Shown piece by piece: positions 3,012-14,589 of a DNA stretch of 64,000 nt. Position 1 is the first letter of the stretch, and each line of letters opens with the position of its first letter. A program made the translations under genes and the position numbers. Under the pieces are notes generated by a model. That model was not told the DNA's origin. It saw nothing but the letters and a program-made list of their open reading frames with translations, and ran no database searches. Source of the DNA: Escherichia coli (GTDB lineage: Bacteria > Pseudomonadota > Gammaproteobacteria > Enterobacterales > Enterobacteriaceae); the NCBI RefSeq assembly GCF_024700885.2, contig NZ_CP117016.1. The stretch is one strand, 5' to 3'.

Positions 3012-3167
3012 TTACTCCTCAGGTTCGTAAACTGTGAAGACAGCGACCTCCGTCTGGCCGGTTCGGATTCGTACCTCGCAGAGGTCTTTCCTCGTTACCA
3101 GTGCCGTCACTATGACGGTTAAACAGATGACGATCAGGGCGATTAACATCGCCTTTTGCTGCTTCAT
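3012..3167 (-). CDS. hok: Hok/Gef-family type I toxin (51 aa membrane peptide)
   Basis: Minus-strand ORF below the 60-aa cutoff of the ORF track; translation MKQQKAMLIALIVICLTVIVTALVTRKDLCEVRIRTGQTEVAVFTVYEPEE is essentially the HokD/Hok sequence as I recall it. Structured GC-rich 3' region and upstream leader present. Confidence 0.85.
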   Translation of the reverse strand: MKQQKAMLIALIVICLTVIVTALVTRKDLCEVRIRTGQTEVAVFTVYEPEE

Positions 3168-3424
3168 AGCCTGCTTCTCCTTGACCTTTCGGTCCGTAAG
3201 AGGCTAATCTCTATGTGTCGCATAGATATGGCCTCAGATTAATGTTAAACGTCTTGCAGGACGCGTAATGTTACCTGGGGCTTTTCTCTATCTGCCGTTG
3301 GTGTTCATGCCCGAGGCAGATAGCCTCAAGCACCCGCAGTCATTCTACTTAACTAAGATTTCCCCGCAAACCGTTTTTGTCCAGCACAATAAATATCCAA
3401 CTAAACCAATGGAGTTCGCTGTAT

Positions 3425-7032: not shown

Positions 7033-7283
7033 GAATCAACTCCCATCAGCTTTTTCGTAGTAGTTTTATTCCTGCCAATAGTTAAAATTGCATCGGCAGA
7101 AAATAATCCGTTTGATGCAAGAGCGATTTTTTCAGCGTAATTTGTTTCGCCGGTATATTCTGTGCGAGGCAATTTTCCGTTATCCATCCATTTATAGATT
7201 GCTCTTTGGCTGACACCACAAACGTCGGCCACAACAGCAACGCGAACAGTTTTGATTACATCTTCAAGTGTTTTCTGGTTCAT
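7029..7283 (-). CDS. Cro-like / YdaS-like HTH regulator
   Basis: 84 aa from internal Met (MNQKTLEDVIK...); HTH-like segment VCGVSQRAIYKWM; divergent from the DicA-like repressor gene. Start chosen to leave a 79-bp operator region. Confidence 0.55.
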   Translation of the reverse strand: MNQKTLEDVIKTVRVAVVADVCGVSQRAIYKWMDNGKLPRTEYTGETNYAEKIALASNGLFSADAILTIGRNKTTTKKLMGVDS

Positions 7284-7362
7284 ATCACCCTCACAATGTG
7301 AACTTTGAGTACATGCTATAACAGAACTGACAGTACATTCAAGAGCGAATATCATTGAACTT

Positions 7363-7782
7363 ATGGTTCATGAAGATAAAGCGCGTAAAGAGTTCGCCAG
7401 TAGGCTTGCGCTAGCCTGTGAAAACGCTGGTTATGAACAACATGGAAGGCAGGCAGAAATTGCCCGTCGAATGAAATTAACACCAAAAGCGGTTAGCAAA
7501 TGGTTTAATGGCGAAACAATTCCTCGCCGGGAGAAATTAAGGGAATTAGCAACACTAATAGGAACAACACCAACCTATCTTTTGGGAGAGGATACAGAAG
7601 AAAGTGGACAGGTACGTTTCTATCAGGAGTTAAATCCAAGACAAAAAATCATCATTGACCTTCTGGACGAGCTCCCTGACAGTGAGACAGATGAACTTTT
7701 AAAAACTCTTGAAGAGAAAAAACAGAAGTACAATGCAATTTACGAAGAGTTAGCACGAAAGAAAAAACAAAAAGCCTCTTAA
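7363..7782 (+). CDS. DicA/RacR-like XRE-family HTH repressor (immunity repressor)
   Basis: 139-aa ORF with N-terminal HTH and acidic C-terminal helix; heads the ydfABC-dicF-dicB module as dicA does in Qin. Confidence 0.6.
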   Translation: MVHEDKARKEFASRLALACENAGYEQHGRQAEIARRMKLTPKAVSKWFNGETIPRREKLRELATLIGTTPTYLLGEDTEESGQVRFYQELNPRQKIIIDLLDELPDSETDELLKTLEEKKQKYNAIYEELARKKKQKAS

Positions 7783-8079
7783 ACCAGCATAAATCCGGTA
7801 GCGCCTTCCTCCGGGTTTGTGCTTCACTTTATCCCATCTCATTTTTTTACACACAAAATGTACTAAAAGTACTTTACAACAATGAACGCAAAGTACATTA
7901 TATACCTACCACCCACCCCGCCCCACAGAATGCAGGGCAATACTTCGAGTTACCAGGCAGTGGTCAGGGGTTAAGTAGCCAGCCCGAGGCGTAAGAACAT
8001 GACGGCAGGGTTCAACTTTAATAACTATGCAGCAGGTTTTTGTTCCGCTACCCCGGCGTTAAGGGGAAATGAGGTCAGC

Positions 8080-8954: not shown

Positions 8955-9007
8955 TTTCTGGTGACGTTTGGCGGTATCAGTTTTACTCCGTGACTGCTCT
9001 GCCGCCC
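8955..9007 (+). ncRNA. dicF: DicF small RNA (ftsZ-targeting sRNA processed from the dicB operon transcript)
   Basis: 53-nt stretch tttctggtgacgtttggcggtatcagttttactccgtgactgctctgccgccc followed by TTTTT; matches the DicF sequence as I recall it and sits between ydfC and dicB. Confidence 0.75.
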
Positions 9008-9181: not shown

Positions 9182-9370
9182 ATGAAAACGTTATTACCAA
9201 ACGTTAATACGTCTGAAGGTTGTTTTGAAATTGGTGTCACTATCAGTAATCCTGTATTTACTGAAGAGGCCATTAACAAAAGAAAACACGAACGGGAGTT
9301 ATTAAATAAAGTATGCATTGTTTCAATGCTGGCCCGTTTACGTCTGATGCCAAAAGGATGTGCACAATGA
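9182..9370 (+). CDS. dicB: cell-division inhibitor DicB
   Basis: 62-aa product MKTLLPNVNTSEGCFEIGVTISNPVFTEEAINKRKHERELLNKVCIVSMLARLRLMPKGCAQ is near-identical to DicB as I recall it. Confidence 0.85.
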   Translation: MKTLLPNVNTSEGCFEIGVTISNPVFTEEAINKRKHERELLNKVCIVSMLARLRLMPKGCAQ

Positions 9371-9558
9371 ATCCAGTATTTGCACTTATTCTGACGGTTT
9401 TTCTTGTTTCCGGAGAGCCAGTTGATATTGCAGTCAGTGTTCACAGAACAATGCAGGAATGTATGGCAGCAGCAACCGAACAGAAAATTCCAGGCAACTG
9501 TTATCCGGTCGATAAAGTTATTCACCAGGATAATAACGAAATCCCGGCAGGATTTTAA
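9367..9558 (+). CDS. ydfD: YdfD-like small protein with N-terminal hydrophobic segment
   Basis: 63-aa ORF MNPVFALILTVFLVSGEPVDIAV...; ATGA overlap with dicB stop. Confidence 0.65.
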   Translation: MNPVFALILTVFLVSGEPVDIAVSVHRTMQECMAAATEQKIPGNCYPVDKVIHQDNNEIPAGF

Positions 9559-9651
9559 AACAGCACCGTAATAAATATCCAGTTTCATTCTTATATGTCA
9601 GCAATGGCAGAGATTTGTTCACCCTTAAATCTGTGATGAGGTTTATCAATA

Positions 9652-12093
9652 ATGAGCACTGATAAAGAAGAATTTGCACTATATTGCGAAGCAAAAAATG
9701 ACAAAGTAAGAAAACGCCTAGGAATTAAAGGTGGTTTTTACTGGACTACAGCAAAAAAATTATCTGTTGCAATCTCCCGCTGCATTACCGCAATGGATGA
9801 CAACGATTATGATGAAGACGACTTTAAAAAACCCGTCCGCGTCAATTTGCCCGTTGTTGACGACCTTCCGCCAGAAGGCGTGTTTGATACTGAATTCTGC
9901 AACCGCTATGAAAAAGGCGGGAAAGATGGCATCACAATGACATTTATCGGCCCTTCCCCCTCTGTTCAGGACAAATCAGCCAGCACTGATAATACCAACA
10001 TCAACGGCGAAGACATGACTGAGATTGAGGAGAGCATGCTTCTACCTGTCTCCGGTCAGGAACTGCCCATTCGTTGGCTTGCTCAACACGGCAGCGAAAA
10101 ACCAGTAACGCACGTTTCACGCGACGAACTCCAGGCATTACACATTGCACGGGCTGAAGAACTACCGGCTGTTACTGCCCTGGCTATTTCGCATAAAACC
10201 AGTCTGCTCGACTCGCTGGAGATTCGCGACCTCCACAAACTGGTTCGTGACACTGACAAAGTTTTCCCTAATCCTGGTAATTCAGACCTGGGACTAATAA
10301 CTGCTTTTTTCGAAGCATACCTGGACGCTGACTACACTGATCGGGGTCTGCTGACAAAAGAGTGGATGAAAGGAAATCGTGTTTCACGCATCACCCGCAC
10401 GGCTTCCGGTGCTAATGCTGGCGGTGGGAACAAAACCGATCGCAGTCCGAATTTAGTACACACCCTCGACACACTGGATGTGGAGATTGCAGCAGCCACA
10501 CTTCCGATGGATTTTAATATTTATGAAATTCCGGGCAGCGTTTATCGTCGCGCAAAAGAAGTAGTCCTGAAAAAAGAAAGTCCGTTCAAAGAATGGTCCG
10601 CAGCACTTCGTGCAACCCCGGGTATTCTGGACTATTCCCGCGCCGCTATTTTTGCACTTATCCGAAGCGCACACCCTGAATTTTATCACTACCCGGGACG
10701 CCTTCAGGGGTATATCAACGCCTATTTGACGGAAACTGATCACGAGAACCCCAGCAAGGAAACTCTCACAGCTGCCCGGCATACGCCGGAAAAAGATATC
10801 CTGGAAGAAATTAACCGCGAGGTGGTTACTGAGCGTGAAACAGAAGAAGAAAAACCACAACCATCTGACGCAATGGCAGGTGAACAGGCAACAACTGAAA
10901 CAATGGAACCGGATACAACTGAACATTGCCAGAACGCGCAGTCGCTGGATGCTCAGTCGCAGGTGAGTTCCGCTAACCAAGTAAAAGTCACCGCTGACGA
11001 AGTAAACAAAATTATGCAGGCAGCCAATATCAGCCAGCCTGACGCCGATAAGTTACTTGCTGTATCGCGTGGTGAATTTGTTGAGGGGATTAGCGACCCT
11101 AATGATCCGAAATGGGTCAAGGGGATCCAGACTCGCGATTCTGTGAACCAGAACCAGCATGAATCGGAACGGAACGACCAAAAAGCGGAACAAAACAGCC
11201 CAAATGCGTTACAAAACGAGCCAGAAACGAAACAATCCGAACCAGTAGCGCAACAGGAACCGGAAAAAGTCTGCACCGCCTGCGGTCAGAGCGGTGGCGG
11301 CAACTGCCCTGATTGTGGCGCGGTGATGGGCGACGCAACATACCAGAAAACATTCGATGAAGAGAATCAGGTTGAAGTTCAGGAAAATGATCCGGAGGAA
11401 ATGGAAGGCGCTGAACATCCACACAAGGAGAATGCTGGCAGCGCTCAGGACCACGCCAGCGATAGTAAAACTGGCGAGACGGCAGATCCCTTAATTACGG
11501 TGAATGGTCATCACGAAATCACATCCACCAGCAGGACGTGTGACCATCTAATGATCGACCTTGAAACCATGGGAAAAAATCCTGATGCCCCGATCATCTC
11601 AATAGGTGCAATATTTTTCGATCCGCAAACCGGAGATATGGGACCGGAATTTAGTAAGACTATCGATCTGGAAACTGCTGGCGGAGTCATTGATCGGGAC
11701 ACCATTAAATGGTGGCTTAAGCAATCACGCGAAGCGCAATCTGCCATTATGACCGATGAAATCCCGTTAGATGATGCACTGTTACAATTGCGGGAATTTA
11801 TCGACGAAAACTCCGGTGAATTTTTTGTTCAGGTCTGGGGAAATGGAGCCAACTTCGACAACACGATTTTGCGCCGTTCATACGAACGGCAGGGGATCCC
11901 CTGCCCGTGGCGTTACTACAACGATCGCGATGTACGCACAATCGTTGAGCTGGGGAAAGCCATAGACTTCGATGCCAGAACGGCTATTCCATTCGAAGGT
12001 GAGCGCCATAATGCACTTGATGACGCTCGTTACCAGGCAAAATACGTTTCAGCTATCTGGCAAAAACTGATCCCGAGTCAGGCTGATTTTTAA
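9652..12093 (+). CDS. YdfE-like large prophage protein with C-terminal DEDDh (DnaQ-like) 3'-5' exonuclease domain
   Basis: 813-aa ORF; the C-terminal ~190 aa carry exonuclease motifs (MIDLETMG..., ...[13 protein letters not shown]..., ...HNALDDAR); preceded by an acidic low-complexity linker and a Cys4 zinc ribbon (CTACG...CPDCG); in the ydfE position between ydfD and xis. Confidence 0.6.
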
Positions 12094-12151: not shown

Positions 12152-12355
12152 ATGAGCAGCTTATTTTTAACCGAAGATGAATTGCTAATATTAACGGGCT
12201 GCAAATATGCAAGCCACCAGCGAAAATGGTTAATGGAAAACGGGCTTCCGTTCTATACCAATCGTAGTGGCAAACCGATTGTCAGCCGGGATCTATTTAC
12301 CTGCAATAAAACTTTACCACCACGCGAGGTAGAGCCGAATTTTGGTGCGATCTGA
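12152..12355 (+). CDS. xis: excisionase (Xis-like)
   Basis: 67-aa ORF immediately upstream of and overlapping (ATGA-type) the integrase start. Confidence 0.6.
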   Translation: MSSLFLTEDELLILTGCKYASHQRKWLMENGLPFYTNRSGKPIVSRDLFTCNKTLPPREVEPNFGAI

Positions 12356-13380
12356 TGGGAAGACGAAGGAAAAATCCTGAACACGAAAAATTACCTCCAA
12401 ATGTATACCCAAATAAATATAGTTATGTATGGAAACCAACATCCAGAGAATCTGTAACACTAACCGCCATCAAGGATGGTTTAGCTGCTTTATGGAAAAA
12501 GTATGAGGAAACTGTAAATAATCGCGATCGTGCAATGACATTCGGTCGCTTGTGGGAAAAATTCCTCGCCAGCGCCTGTTACAGTGACCTTAGCCCAAGA
12601 ACACAAAAAGATTATCTGCAACATCAAAAAAAGTTGCTTGCCGTATTCGGTAAGGTACCAGCGGATTCCATAAAACCAGAACACATCCGTCGATACATGG
12701 ACAAAAGAGGGGAACAGAGCAAAACGCAAGCCAACCATGAAAAAAGCAGTATGTCCCGCGTTTACAGTTGGGGATATGAGCGAGGGTACGTGAAGGTTAA
12801 CCCATGTGCAGGTGTAAGTAAATTCAAGGCCAAAAACCGCGAACGATATGTAACCGACAAAGAATACCAGGCAGTATTAAGCGTTGCACCTCTTCCTGTT
12901 TTTATCGCAATGGAAATTGCCTATCTGTGTGCAGCGAGGGTTTCCGATGTGTTATCGCTGAAATGGGAGCAGATTGGAAACGACGGGATCTTTATCCAGC
13001 AAGGGAAAACAGGGAAAAAACAGATAAAAGCATGGAGTCCACGATTACAGGCGGCGATCGAAAAAGCAAAACAGTTACCAACATCCGCCTATGTAATCAG
13101 CAATCAATACGGCAACCGATATATGTACAAAGGCTTTAACGAAATGTGGGTAGAAGCAAGAAATCGCGCAGGCAAAATTTCAGGTATTTTAACCGACTTC
13201 ACCTTTCATGATCTGAAGGCGAAAGGAATTTCAGACTATGAAGGAAGCAGTCGGGATAAGCAACTTTTCTCTGGTCACAAAACCGAGGGGCAAGTGCTAA
13301 TCTATGACAGGAAGGTTAAAGTTTCACCGACACTTGATGTCCCGTTACCTGAAAATATTCCAAGAAAATATTCCAAGTAA
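12355..13380 (+). CDS. int: lambda-family tyrosine integrase
   Basis: 341-aa ORF starting MGRRR... like lambda Int; transcribed toward the tRNA-Ser 3' end, which lies 52 bp downstream. Confidence 0.85.
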   Translation: MGRRRKNPEHEKLPPNVYPNKYSYVWKPTSRESVTLTAIKDGLAALWKKYEETVNNRDRAMTFGRLWEKFLASACYSDLSPRTQKDYLQHQKKLLAVFGKVPADSIKPEHIRRYMDKRGEQSKTQANHEKSSMSRVYSWGYERGYVKVNPCAGVSKFKAKNRERYVTDKEYQAVLSVAPLPVFIAMEIAYLCAARVSDVLSLKWEQIGNDGIFIQQGKTGKKQIKAWSPRLQAAIEKAKQLPTSAYVISNQYGNRYMYKGFNEMWVEARNRAGKISGILTDFTFHDLKAKGISDYEGSSRDKQLFSGHKTEGQVLIYDRKVKVSPTLDVPLPENIPRKYSK

Positions 13381-13432: not shown

Positions 13433-13522
13433 TGGCGGAGAGAGGGGGATTTGAACCCCCGGTAGAGTTGCCCCTACTCCGGTTTTCGAGACCGGTCCGT
13501 TCAGCCGCTCCGGCATCTCTCC
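13433..13522 (-). tRNA. serU: tRNA-Ser (anticodon CGA)
   Basis: Reverse complement reads GGAGAGATGCCGGAGCGGCTGAACGGACCGGTCTCGAAAACCGG...CTCTCTCCGCCA, a 90-nt class II tRNA with anticodon CGA and encoded CCA. Confidence 0.9.
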
Positions 13523-14513: not shown

Positions 14514-14589
14514 TCCTCTGTAGTTCAGTCGGTAGAACGGCGGACTGTTAATCCGTATGTCACTGGTTCGAGTCCAGTCAGAGGAGCCA
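14514..14589 (+). tRNA. asnT: tRNA-Asn (GUU)
   Basis: 76-nt TCCTCTGTAGTTCAGTCGGTAGAACGGCGGACTGTTAATCCGTATGTCACTGGTTCGAGTCCAGTCAGAGGAGCCA; its 3' end is the HPI attachment site. Confidence 0.95.

Follow-up and report, generated by a model that had tools for sequence, protein, structure and literature searches.

The gene examined here lies in a 64,000-nt stretch of Escherichia coli DNA (contig NZ_CP117016.1 of assembly GCF_024700885.2; this whole stretch is hereafter called the window) and encodes an 813-residue prophage protein that is a fusion of two parts: By sequence homology, its N-terminal three quarters are the non-catalytic region of RecE (exonuclease VIII), and its C-terminus is a DEDDh-type exonuclease domain for which 3'→5' activity is predicted. 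This anatomy is near certain. In the ORF (open reading frame) listing of the window, a single ATG-initiated ORF spans positions 9652..12093 of the plus strand (813 codons plus stop), with a GAGG located 10 nt 5' of the ATG. Its product is 100% identical to RefSeq WP_001544673.1, an 'exonuclease' of E. coli strain 4/4, as is the DNA, and the exact 813-residue protein is present on 474 contigs of a large protein collection. Among 5426 complete E. coli genomes, 1244 cover at least 80% of the gene in one place and 4744 match some part of it, with a median of 2 and a maximum of 9 matching places per genome. A preliminary description of this ORF had listed an acidic linker, a zinc ribbon and a C-terminal DnaQ-like domain, all of which are present according to ORF list, composition and Pfam, the zinc ribbon as a CxxC-x7-CxxC motif. 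It had also remarked that proteins of this kind are annotated loosely as exodeoxyribonuclease VIII-like, and the databases indeed offer the names 'exonuclease', '3'-5' exoribonuclease' and 'exodeoxyribonuclease VIII'. The combination of PF06630 and PF16473 is already on record for thousands of database entries. In the literature that we searched we found neither a functional test or experimental study of the gene nor a description of a RecE-N::DEDDh fusion, its fixed junction or the strict exclusion of RecT. The fusion is hence a catalogued but uncharacterised architecture, which a specialist would find plausible rather than startling.

RecE scaffold and DEDDh domain

The assignment of the N-terminal region draws on profile, protein and DNA comparisons. 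Pfam Exonuc_VIII (PF06630) matches residues 57-189 (E 7e-36), and in the NCBIfam RecE equivalog model NF007259 residues 1-616 match profile positions 1-603 of 877 with 946 bits, a score that stays below the curated cut-off of 1269, as nothing matches the final quarter of the model. In a BLASTP alignment, residues 58-616 align with residues 50-592 of K-12 RecE at 59% identity, the zinc motif and both acidic linkers included. These matches overturn the earlier statement that the N-terminal ~500 residues hold no assignable motif. Full-length homology to RecE, which the preliminary description had regarded as evidence against its own proposal, exists for three quarters of the protein (residues 58-616) and is absent from the catalytic quarter: Neither BLASTP nor phmmer detects similarity to the RecE nuclease region (600-866) in the window protein, and Pfam finds no PF12684 PD-(D/E)XK domain in it, whereas K-12 RecE and SPN3UB RecE both match this family.

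The same border is visible in the DNA. Positions 9625-11495 are 94.9% identical to a genuine recE-recT locus (L083), and similarity then ends abruptly, which places the junction at codon 615. In this locus and its companions (L081-L085 of the IMG/VR collection) the encoded proteins share 95% identity with the window protein in residues 1-388 and 86-90% in residues 440-616; what follows in them is a nuclease domain 98-99% identical to that of K-12 RecE, and recT comes next. Judged by sequence, the junction at codon 615 is close to the start of the RecE PD-(D/E)XK nuclease domain, which begins at residue 564 according to the literature (PMC11611040) and whose PF12684 match covers RecE residues 615-850. 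The elements of the gene are as follows:

9652..12093 (+): whole ORF, N-terminal scaffold of RecE joined to a DEDDh exonuclease (ORF list, Pfam, NCBIfam, BLASTP)
9664..9951 (+): folded alpha/beta domain 1, residues 5-100, common to RecE-family proteins
9961..10113 (+): linker, residues 104-154, disordered in the full-length model and partly ordered in the N-terminal-only model
10114..10401 (+): helical domain 2, residues 155-250, in the RecE-homologous region; F219 and W238 nearly invariant, dN/dS (ratio of non-synonymous to synonymous substitution rates) 0.14
10459..10827 (+): helical domain 3, residues 270-392, also in RecE, full-length YdfE-type alleles and nuclease-less RecE-family proteins
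10828..10989 (+): acidic disordered linker, residues 393-446 (composition, model)
10990..11118 (+): two-helix module, residues 447-489, start of the stretch common to RecE and full-length YdfE alleles
11272..11316 (+): CxxC-x7-CxxC zinc-knuckle-like motif, C541/C544/C552/C555, in a disordered acidic region; also in K-12 RecE
11495..11496 (+): mosaic junction, codon 615; recE DNA similarity ends, with the divergence of the nuclease-less allele of locus L122 only a few codons away
11539..12090 (+): DEDDh 3'-5' exonuclease domain, residues 630-813, Rv2179c/DexA-like (Pfam, PDB match 8kel, Foldseek, model confidence above 90)
11557..11565 (+): Exo I motif, codons D636-L637-E638; invariant alignment columns, 86/89 and 94/105 in another alignment
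11857..11859 (+): Exo II catalytic Asp, D736 in NGANFD (alignments)
12007..12024 (+): Exo III motif H786-x4-D791 (HNALDD), which defines the DEDDh subclass (alignments)

AlphaFold2 yields a mean predicted local distance difference test score (pLDDT) of 71.7 for the full-length protein and of 87.3 for residues 1-400 alone. The full model shows helical domains at ~155-250 and ~270-392, short helices at 448-472 and disorder at 393-446 and 490-627. Acidic low-complexity linkers extend over residues ~361-446 and ~556-615 with a net charge of -5 to -9 per 30 residues, and the CxxC-x7-CxxC motif is poorly modelled. The N-terminal folds match no solved structure.

In its overall layout the protein resembles RecE of the Rac prophage in K-12 (NF007259; PF06630 + PF12684): Their N-terminal three quarters are homologous and comprise folded domains, acidic linkers and a C4 motif, and both genes occupy the same early-left operon position in a Rac/Qin-type prophage. 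They differ in the nuclease, as a DEDDh domain of opposite predicted polarity takes the place of the PD-(D/E)XK 5'→3' nuclease, and in the genes that follow, as recT, ralR and rcbA are absent downstream of the window gene, where xis comes next. The window protein is outside the RecE equivalog family with regard to nuclease domain, score and recT linkage alike.

In agreement with the earlier view that the catalytic domain is of the DEDDh type and not of the RecE fold, residues 632-803 match Pfam PF16473 (Rv2179c-like) over profile positions 2-177 of 177 (E 8e-68, 228 bits versus a cut-off of 27), and by this sequence match the protein is a member of PF16473. In alignments with T4 DexA, the mEp235 exonuclease and diverse family members, D636, E638, D736, H786 and D791 are invariant or nearly so and correspond to D7, E9, D119, H186 and D191 of DexA. 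AlphaFold2 models residues 630-810 with pLDDT >90, and a Foldseek search of the PDB with this model places T4 DexA first (8KEN/8KEL; E 7e-9, target template-modelling score 0.65-0.71), followed by RNase T, oligoribonuclease, REXO2 and Cap18, which is associated with CBASS (cyclic oligonucleotide-based anti-phage signalling system). By sequence, DexA (8kel) is the only PDB match. By alignments and model together, the DEDDh active site is intact and its RNase H-like fold resembles that of DexA, which predicts 3'→5' activity. Separate translation of the domain from the ATG of M634 is unsupported: This ATG is preceded only by an AGGA 14 nt upstream, which was rejected as a good ribosome-binding site.

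Three relatives delimit the domain further. T4 DexA and the Rv2179c-like family share the fold and the five catalytic residues, and DexA is the best PDB match; its identity to the domain is however only 26%, it is a stand-alone protein of 227 residues instead of the C-terminus of an 813-residue scaffold protein, and DexA-specific loops as well as W152 are absent from the window protein. In the column of W152 stands a tyrosine (Y756); among 92 aligned sequences, this column holds Trp in 37 and Tyr in 18. The closest of the three is the stand-alone exonuclease of phage mEp235, with 59% identity over the whole domain and a likewise early-left operon near xis-int. Unlike the window protein, exonucleases of the mEp235 type are ~182 residues long (182 in mEp235 itself), unfused and located among genes for an annealase, SSB and an anti-RecBCD protein; in mEp235 the exonuclease gene stands between SSB and Abc2 in an Erf-SSB-exo-Abc2 module. 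The third relative, EcD or 'HREX' (PMC12153337), belongs to the same Pfam/PHROG family and is also prophage-borne, but is a stand-alone protein of 189 residues, and an EcD-like protein (from locus L105) is 36% identical over 180 residues. Where EcD has an alanine (A78) at the position of DexA D90 and so loses a tetramer contact of DexA, the window protein has an aspartate (D708). DnaQ-like 3'-5' nucleases of lambdoid early-left operons, both in Rec modules and sporadically near int, were described in 2025 (PMC12315714).

Allele mosaic and exchangeable C-termini

To follow the distribution of the RecE N-terminal modules, 1.84 billion representatives (clustering at 50% identity) were searched exhaustively with HMMER. 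This returned 305 proteins at E <= 1e-30; modules were mapped on the best 150 of them. Within these best 150 of 305, the RecE N-terminal modules occur with a DEDDh domain in at least 15 clusters, with a PD-(D/E)XK domain in at least 18 and without a recognisable nuclease in at least 10, the last being confirmed by Pfam; this nuclease-less group corresponds to the 'RecE-2' proteins of PMC12315714. The CxxC-x7-CxxC motif is conserved in roughly 10-13 cluster representatives having the zinc-knuckle-like module.

At closer range, we inspected 80 IMG/VR loci that share at least 93% identity with the window protein over its first 400 residues. The C-terminus is a DEDDh domain in 66 of the 80, and RecT accompanies none of these 66; it matches PD-(D/E)XK in 8 of the 80, and RecT accompanies 7 of these 8. 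Three diverged DEDDh fusions (P0134, P0142 and P0126; 38-48% identity) likewise lie directly upstream of xis/int or int and are devoid of an annealase. Among the complete copies of close relatives in the IMG/VR loci, 41 of 68 are exactly 813 residues long.

A nuclease-less allele breaks off at the same place. The 657-residue protein in E. coli IGC_EcoliInv_1.1 (L122:3501-7216), an example of 'RecE-2' (PMC12315714), is 66% identical over residues 1-611 and has its junction at the same position: Similarity is lost at residue 611 of the window protein, and a hydrophobic tail of 59 residues ends the allele. It differs from the window protein by this tail, the missing nuclease domain and a complete lambda Red module alongside; its gene is followed by gam-bet-exo, ralR and xisR. 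Two further arrangements were observed. In another lineage, the gene of a nuclease-less RecE-family protein of 814 residues precedes one for Sipho_Gp157 (PF05565; L013/L014:7442-7996), a pair of small ORFs, xis and int. In P0127 (703 residues), a RecT domain (Pfam RecT E 1e-42, residues 528-678) is joined directly to a RecE N-terminal region, an arrangement that might reflect a deletion or an error of assembly.

The downstream half of the gene leads to a different allele. Bases 1330-2442 of the gene match YdfE-type alleles at about 94-97% nucleotide identity, and the full-length 823-residue YdfE-type protein (WP_023363203.1), which occupies the same locus dicB-ydfD-[gene]-xis-int at tRNA-Ser, has residues ~444-813 in common with the window protein (two-helix module, zinc motif and acidic linker), the DEDDh domain being identical in protein sequence. 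In contrast, its first ~245 residues are unrelated and residues 246-440 only weakly similar. K-12 ydfE (L123:3579-4499) is a pseudogene truncated by IS2 (IS2E). Its product matches the 823-residue allele (L006:4641-7112) with 100% identity over residues 1-256 and is thus the truncated N-terminus of an allele which shares only ~444-813 with the window protein. As it has no similarity to the window protein and belongs to the 823-residue allele, K-12 YdfE was rejected as a homologue of the window N-terminus. The middle region 444-616 is common to three or more allele types (RecE, full-length YdfE and the window recombinant), and on these alignments the window protein is best described as a recE/ydfE recombinant, with a RecE-type N-terminus, a middle common to RecE and full-length YdfE, and a YdfE-type DEDDh domain.

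Divergence varies sharply between modules within each sequence pair, which indicates repeated recombination. Pairwise dN/dS according to Nei-Gojobori is 0.10-0.14 in domains 1-2, 0.04-0.08 in the DEDDh domain and 0.5-0.6 in the linker plus zinc region. The low values in the folded N-terminal domains and the DEDDh domain indicate that scaffold and nuclease are both kept by purifying selection, so that the gene is unlikely to be a relic.

Prophage setting

The prophage is Qin/Rac-like and lambdoid, and the gene is part of its early-left operon. On the plus strand, a helix-turn-helix (HTH) protein gene is followed by ydfA (DUF1391), ydfB, ydfC, DicF, dicB, a ydfD-like DUF1482 gene, the exonuclease gene, a xis-like gene and int; past int come tRNA-Ser, mtfA and then the yersiniabactin island at tRNA-Asn. 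The position next to xis-int, which had been likened to that of recE/ydfE, is thereby borne out. The relevant features are:

7158..7802 (+): HTH protein at the K-12 Qin DicA position, head of the operon that ends with the exonuclease gene (annotation of the matching locus)
8956..9007 (+): DicF small RNA, same operon (Rfam RF00039, 76.7 bits)
9182..9558 (+): dicB (9182-9370) and the ydfD-like DUF1482 gene (9367-9558), immediately upstream of the exonuclease gene
12152..13380 (+): DUF4224 xis-like gene (12152..12355) and tyrosine integrase gene (12355..13380), immediately downstream
13436..13522 (-): tRNA-Ser, prophage end

By analogy with K-12, the HTH protein encoded at 7158..7802 is presumed to be the repressor: In K-12 Qin, DicA represses the dicBF operon, of which only DicF, DicB and YdfD are characterised (PMC10448788). 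A promoter and terminator scan around the exonuclease gene gave sites no more numerous than in shuffled sequence, so a promoter of its own is unsupported. The integrase ORF has 341 residues in the window, and its counterpart is annotated as a frameshifted pseudogene in RefSeq strains 4/4 and Esc29; given this annotation, the prophage may be cryptic.

The absence of a recT-like partner, already stated in the preliminary description, holds for the entire window: In tblastn, RecT (two types), Bet, Erf, lambda Exo, Gam, phage SSB and Gp157 have no match within the 64 kb, and the annotated and PHROG-scanned early genes include neither an annealase nor Gam, lambda Exo or phage SSB.

Several features lie further away. 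A sok antitoxin RNA is found at 3165-3335 on the minus strand (100.8 bits), and the hokD annotated in the matching genome, at ~1148-1303 of the window, is recorded as overlapping the sok match. Beyond the prophage end, tRNA-Asn occupies 14514-14586 (+), and from 14970 a second integrase and the yersiniabactin high-pathogenicity island follow (ybtS, ybtX, ybtQ, ybtP, ybtA and irp2). GC content is 0.58-0.61 over about 18 to 44 kb of the window.

Candidate functions

With moderate confidence, we favour a scaffold-tethered 3'→5' exonuclease that acts on DNA ends, in which the DNA substrate and the targeting role of the scaffold are the steps we infer. By analogy with K-12 Qin, the gene would be transcribed within ydfA-ydfB-ydfC-dicF-dicB-ydfD-exo-xis-int once the DicA-like repressor is lifted. 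The DEDDh domain would then remove nucleotides from free DNA 3' ends by two-metal catalysis, as T4 DexA does, with single-stranded tails and possibly also duplex ends as substrates. Meanwhile, the RecE-type scaffold would hold the exonuclease at the site or partner of RecE on a long flexible tether of about 140 disordered acidic residues, and the whole would constitute an annealase-independent module for the trimming or degradation of DNA ends, with host DNA, intermediates of the phage itself or the DNA of competitors as candidate targets. As its predicted polarity is opposite to that of RecE and an annealase is missing, the protein would neither make nor anneal recombinogenic 3' tails and would not be a RecET-type recombinase.

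Several points weigh against this reading. The preference for DNA or RNA cannot be read from the sequence; an exoribonuclease gave the Pfam family its name, and '3'-5' exoribonuclease' is a frequent NCBI name of the protein itself. Moreover, 3'-5' exonucleases usually inhibit rather than promote recombination (PMC12315714). Transcripts that reach ydfE were not detected on Northern blots in K-12 (PMC10448788), which makes expression of the distal gene uncertain, and the linked integrase is annotated as frameshifted, so the gene may be kept for a benefit at the level of the host rather than for phage development.

A bolder view, which we consider rather improbable, extends to the whole family: The RecE N-terminus would be an autonomous targeting or regulatory module, which enterobacterial lambdoid phages join at one recombination hot spot after an acidic linker to interchangeable effectors, namely a 5'→3' nuclease with RecT, a 3'→5' DEDDh nuclease alone, or no nuclease beside lambda Red. 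The DEDDh fusion would then be an annealase-independent weapon brought to DNA ends or to a complex of the host, perhaps in defence, counter-defence or the shut-off of host DNA. Because the same N-terminus is found with nucleases of opposite polarity or with none, its function is argued to be independent of resection polarity. The roughly 600-residue RecE N-terminus, a puzzle ever since RecE was characterised, matters in practice, because full-length RecE makes linear-linear 'direct cloning' recombineering efficient. The main value of the fusion is that of a natural experiment on the function of this region: If the RecE N-terminus is a targeting module, the natural chimeras offer a handle on what it binds. 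Should the DEDDh fusion be a nuclease for defence or host shut-off, a widespread prophage activity would be added to E. coli immunity; should it not be, it would be just another mosaic allele from a prophage region very prone to recombination.

A rival and rather doubtful proposal is that of an anti-phage or superinfection-exclusion nuclease, which would benefit the lysogen by selective degradation of incoming DNA, for example the hydroxymethylcytosine-modified DNA of T-even phages. The precedent is EcD, which belongs to the same Pfam/PHROG family: When carried on a plasmid, EcD makes E. coli resist T4, and it degrades T4 DNA while leaving unmodified double-stranded DNA undigested (Kang et al., NAR 2025, PMC12153337). 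Using the published cloning primer, we recovered EcD as a 189-residue gene on IMG/VR prophage contigs (L105:6401-6991 (-); also L104, L108, L111, L118 and L119), with an in-frame MNHL before the published start and with a single small ORF between it and the gene of a phage DNA methyltransferase; this location shows that EcD is prophage-encoded. The domain in the window, however, is only 36% identical to EcD versus 59% to the exonuclease of a Rec module, and differs at the positions that count: The residue held responsible for the selectivity of EcD (PMC12153337), Ala at DexA D90, is Asp (D708), and the proposed recogniser of 5-hydroxymethylcytosine (5hmC), DexA W152, is Tyr (Y756). The loop that holds DexA D169 is not reliably alignable, and a transfer of the 5hmC-recognition residues of DexA and EcD to the window protein was rejected. 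With respect to the operon, DicB, which it also encodes, is reported to protect against phages, and a great many E. coli genomes keep the exonuclease gene intact and under purifying selection despite the frameshift annotated in int; by analogy with K-12, though, the operon would be repressed in the lysogen, and a role in the induction phase fits better than standing immunity. Finally, no PADLOC defence model matches except a generic CRISPR-associated DEDDh profile (E 8e-7), and the RecE scaffold is left unexplained.

The protein might instead be an accessory recombination or repair nuclease that trims 3' flaps or tails in strand annealing or break repair, together with annealases or RecA from the host or from other prophages; it would then be a Rec-module protein without being an equivalent of RecE. 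This we hold to be unlikely. In its favour, a protein built on the scaffold of RecE occupies the Rec-module position in the early-left operon, and the closest stand-alone relative resides within an Erf-SSB-exo-Abc2 module; related early-left loci can also coexist in one cell, as E. coli genomes have a median of 2 and up to 9 matching places. DnaQ-like nucleases are also accepted as members of Rec modules, but only when contiguous with other Rec genes; int-proximal genes of the DnaQ type are explicitly not counted as Rec-module proteins, and 3'-5' exonucleases generally antagonise recombination (PMC12315714). An annealase is nearby in none of the 66 close DEDDh relatives and in none of the three diverged lineages.

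We judge it quite improbable that the protein is an RNA or oligonucleotide exonuclease similar to Rv2179c, oligoribonuclease and REXO2, with RNA 3' ends, nanoRNAs or nucleotide second messengers as its targets in phage development. The name of PF16473, taken from the M. tuberculosis exoribonuclease Rv2179c, and the NCBI name '3'-5' exoribonuclease' are in its favour, as is the tyrosine at the position of DexA W152, which corresponds to REXO2 Y164 (supplement of PMC12153337). The structural neighbours after DexA (RNase T, oligoribonuclease, REXO2 and Cap18) could be cited too, but RNase T also acts on DNA, the matched structures being complexes with single-stranded and duplex DNA, and the fold neighbours therefore do not discriminate between substrates. 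The best match in both sequence and structure is the DNA exonuclease DexA; moreover, the scaffold to which the domain is attached belongs to a DNA recombination nuclease, and the close stand-alone relatives of the domain are found among genes of DNA metabolism.

That the gene is a functionless relic, a decaying recE/ydfE recombinant carried passively in cryptic prophages, is very improbable and largely refuted by selection and conservation: The frameshift annotated in the linked int, the IS2-truncated ydfE of K-12 and truncated copies among the IMG/VR loci would suit decay, but 41 of the 68 complete copies in close relatives keep exactly 813 residues, 1244 of the 5426 complete E. coli genomes cover at least 80% of the gene, the folded domains have a dN/dS well under 1, the active site has lost none of its catalytic residues, and the architecture persists in lineages that are only 38-48% identical.

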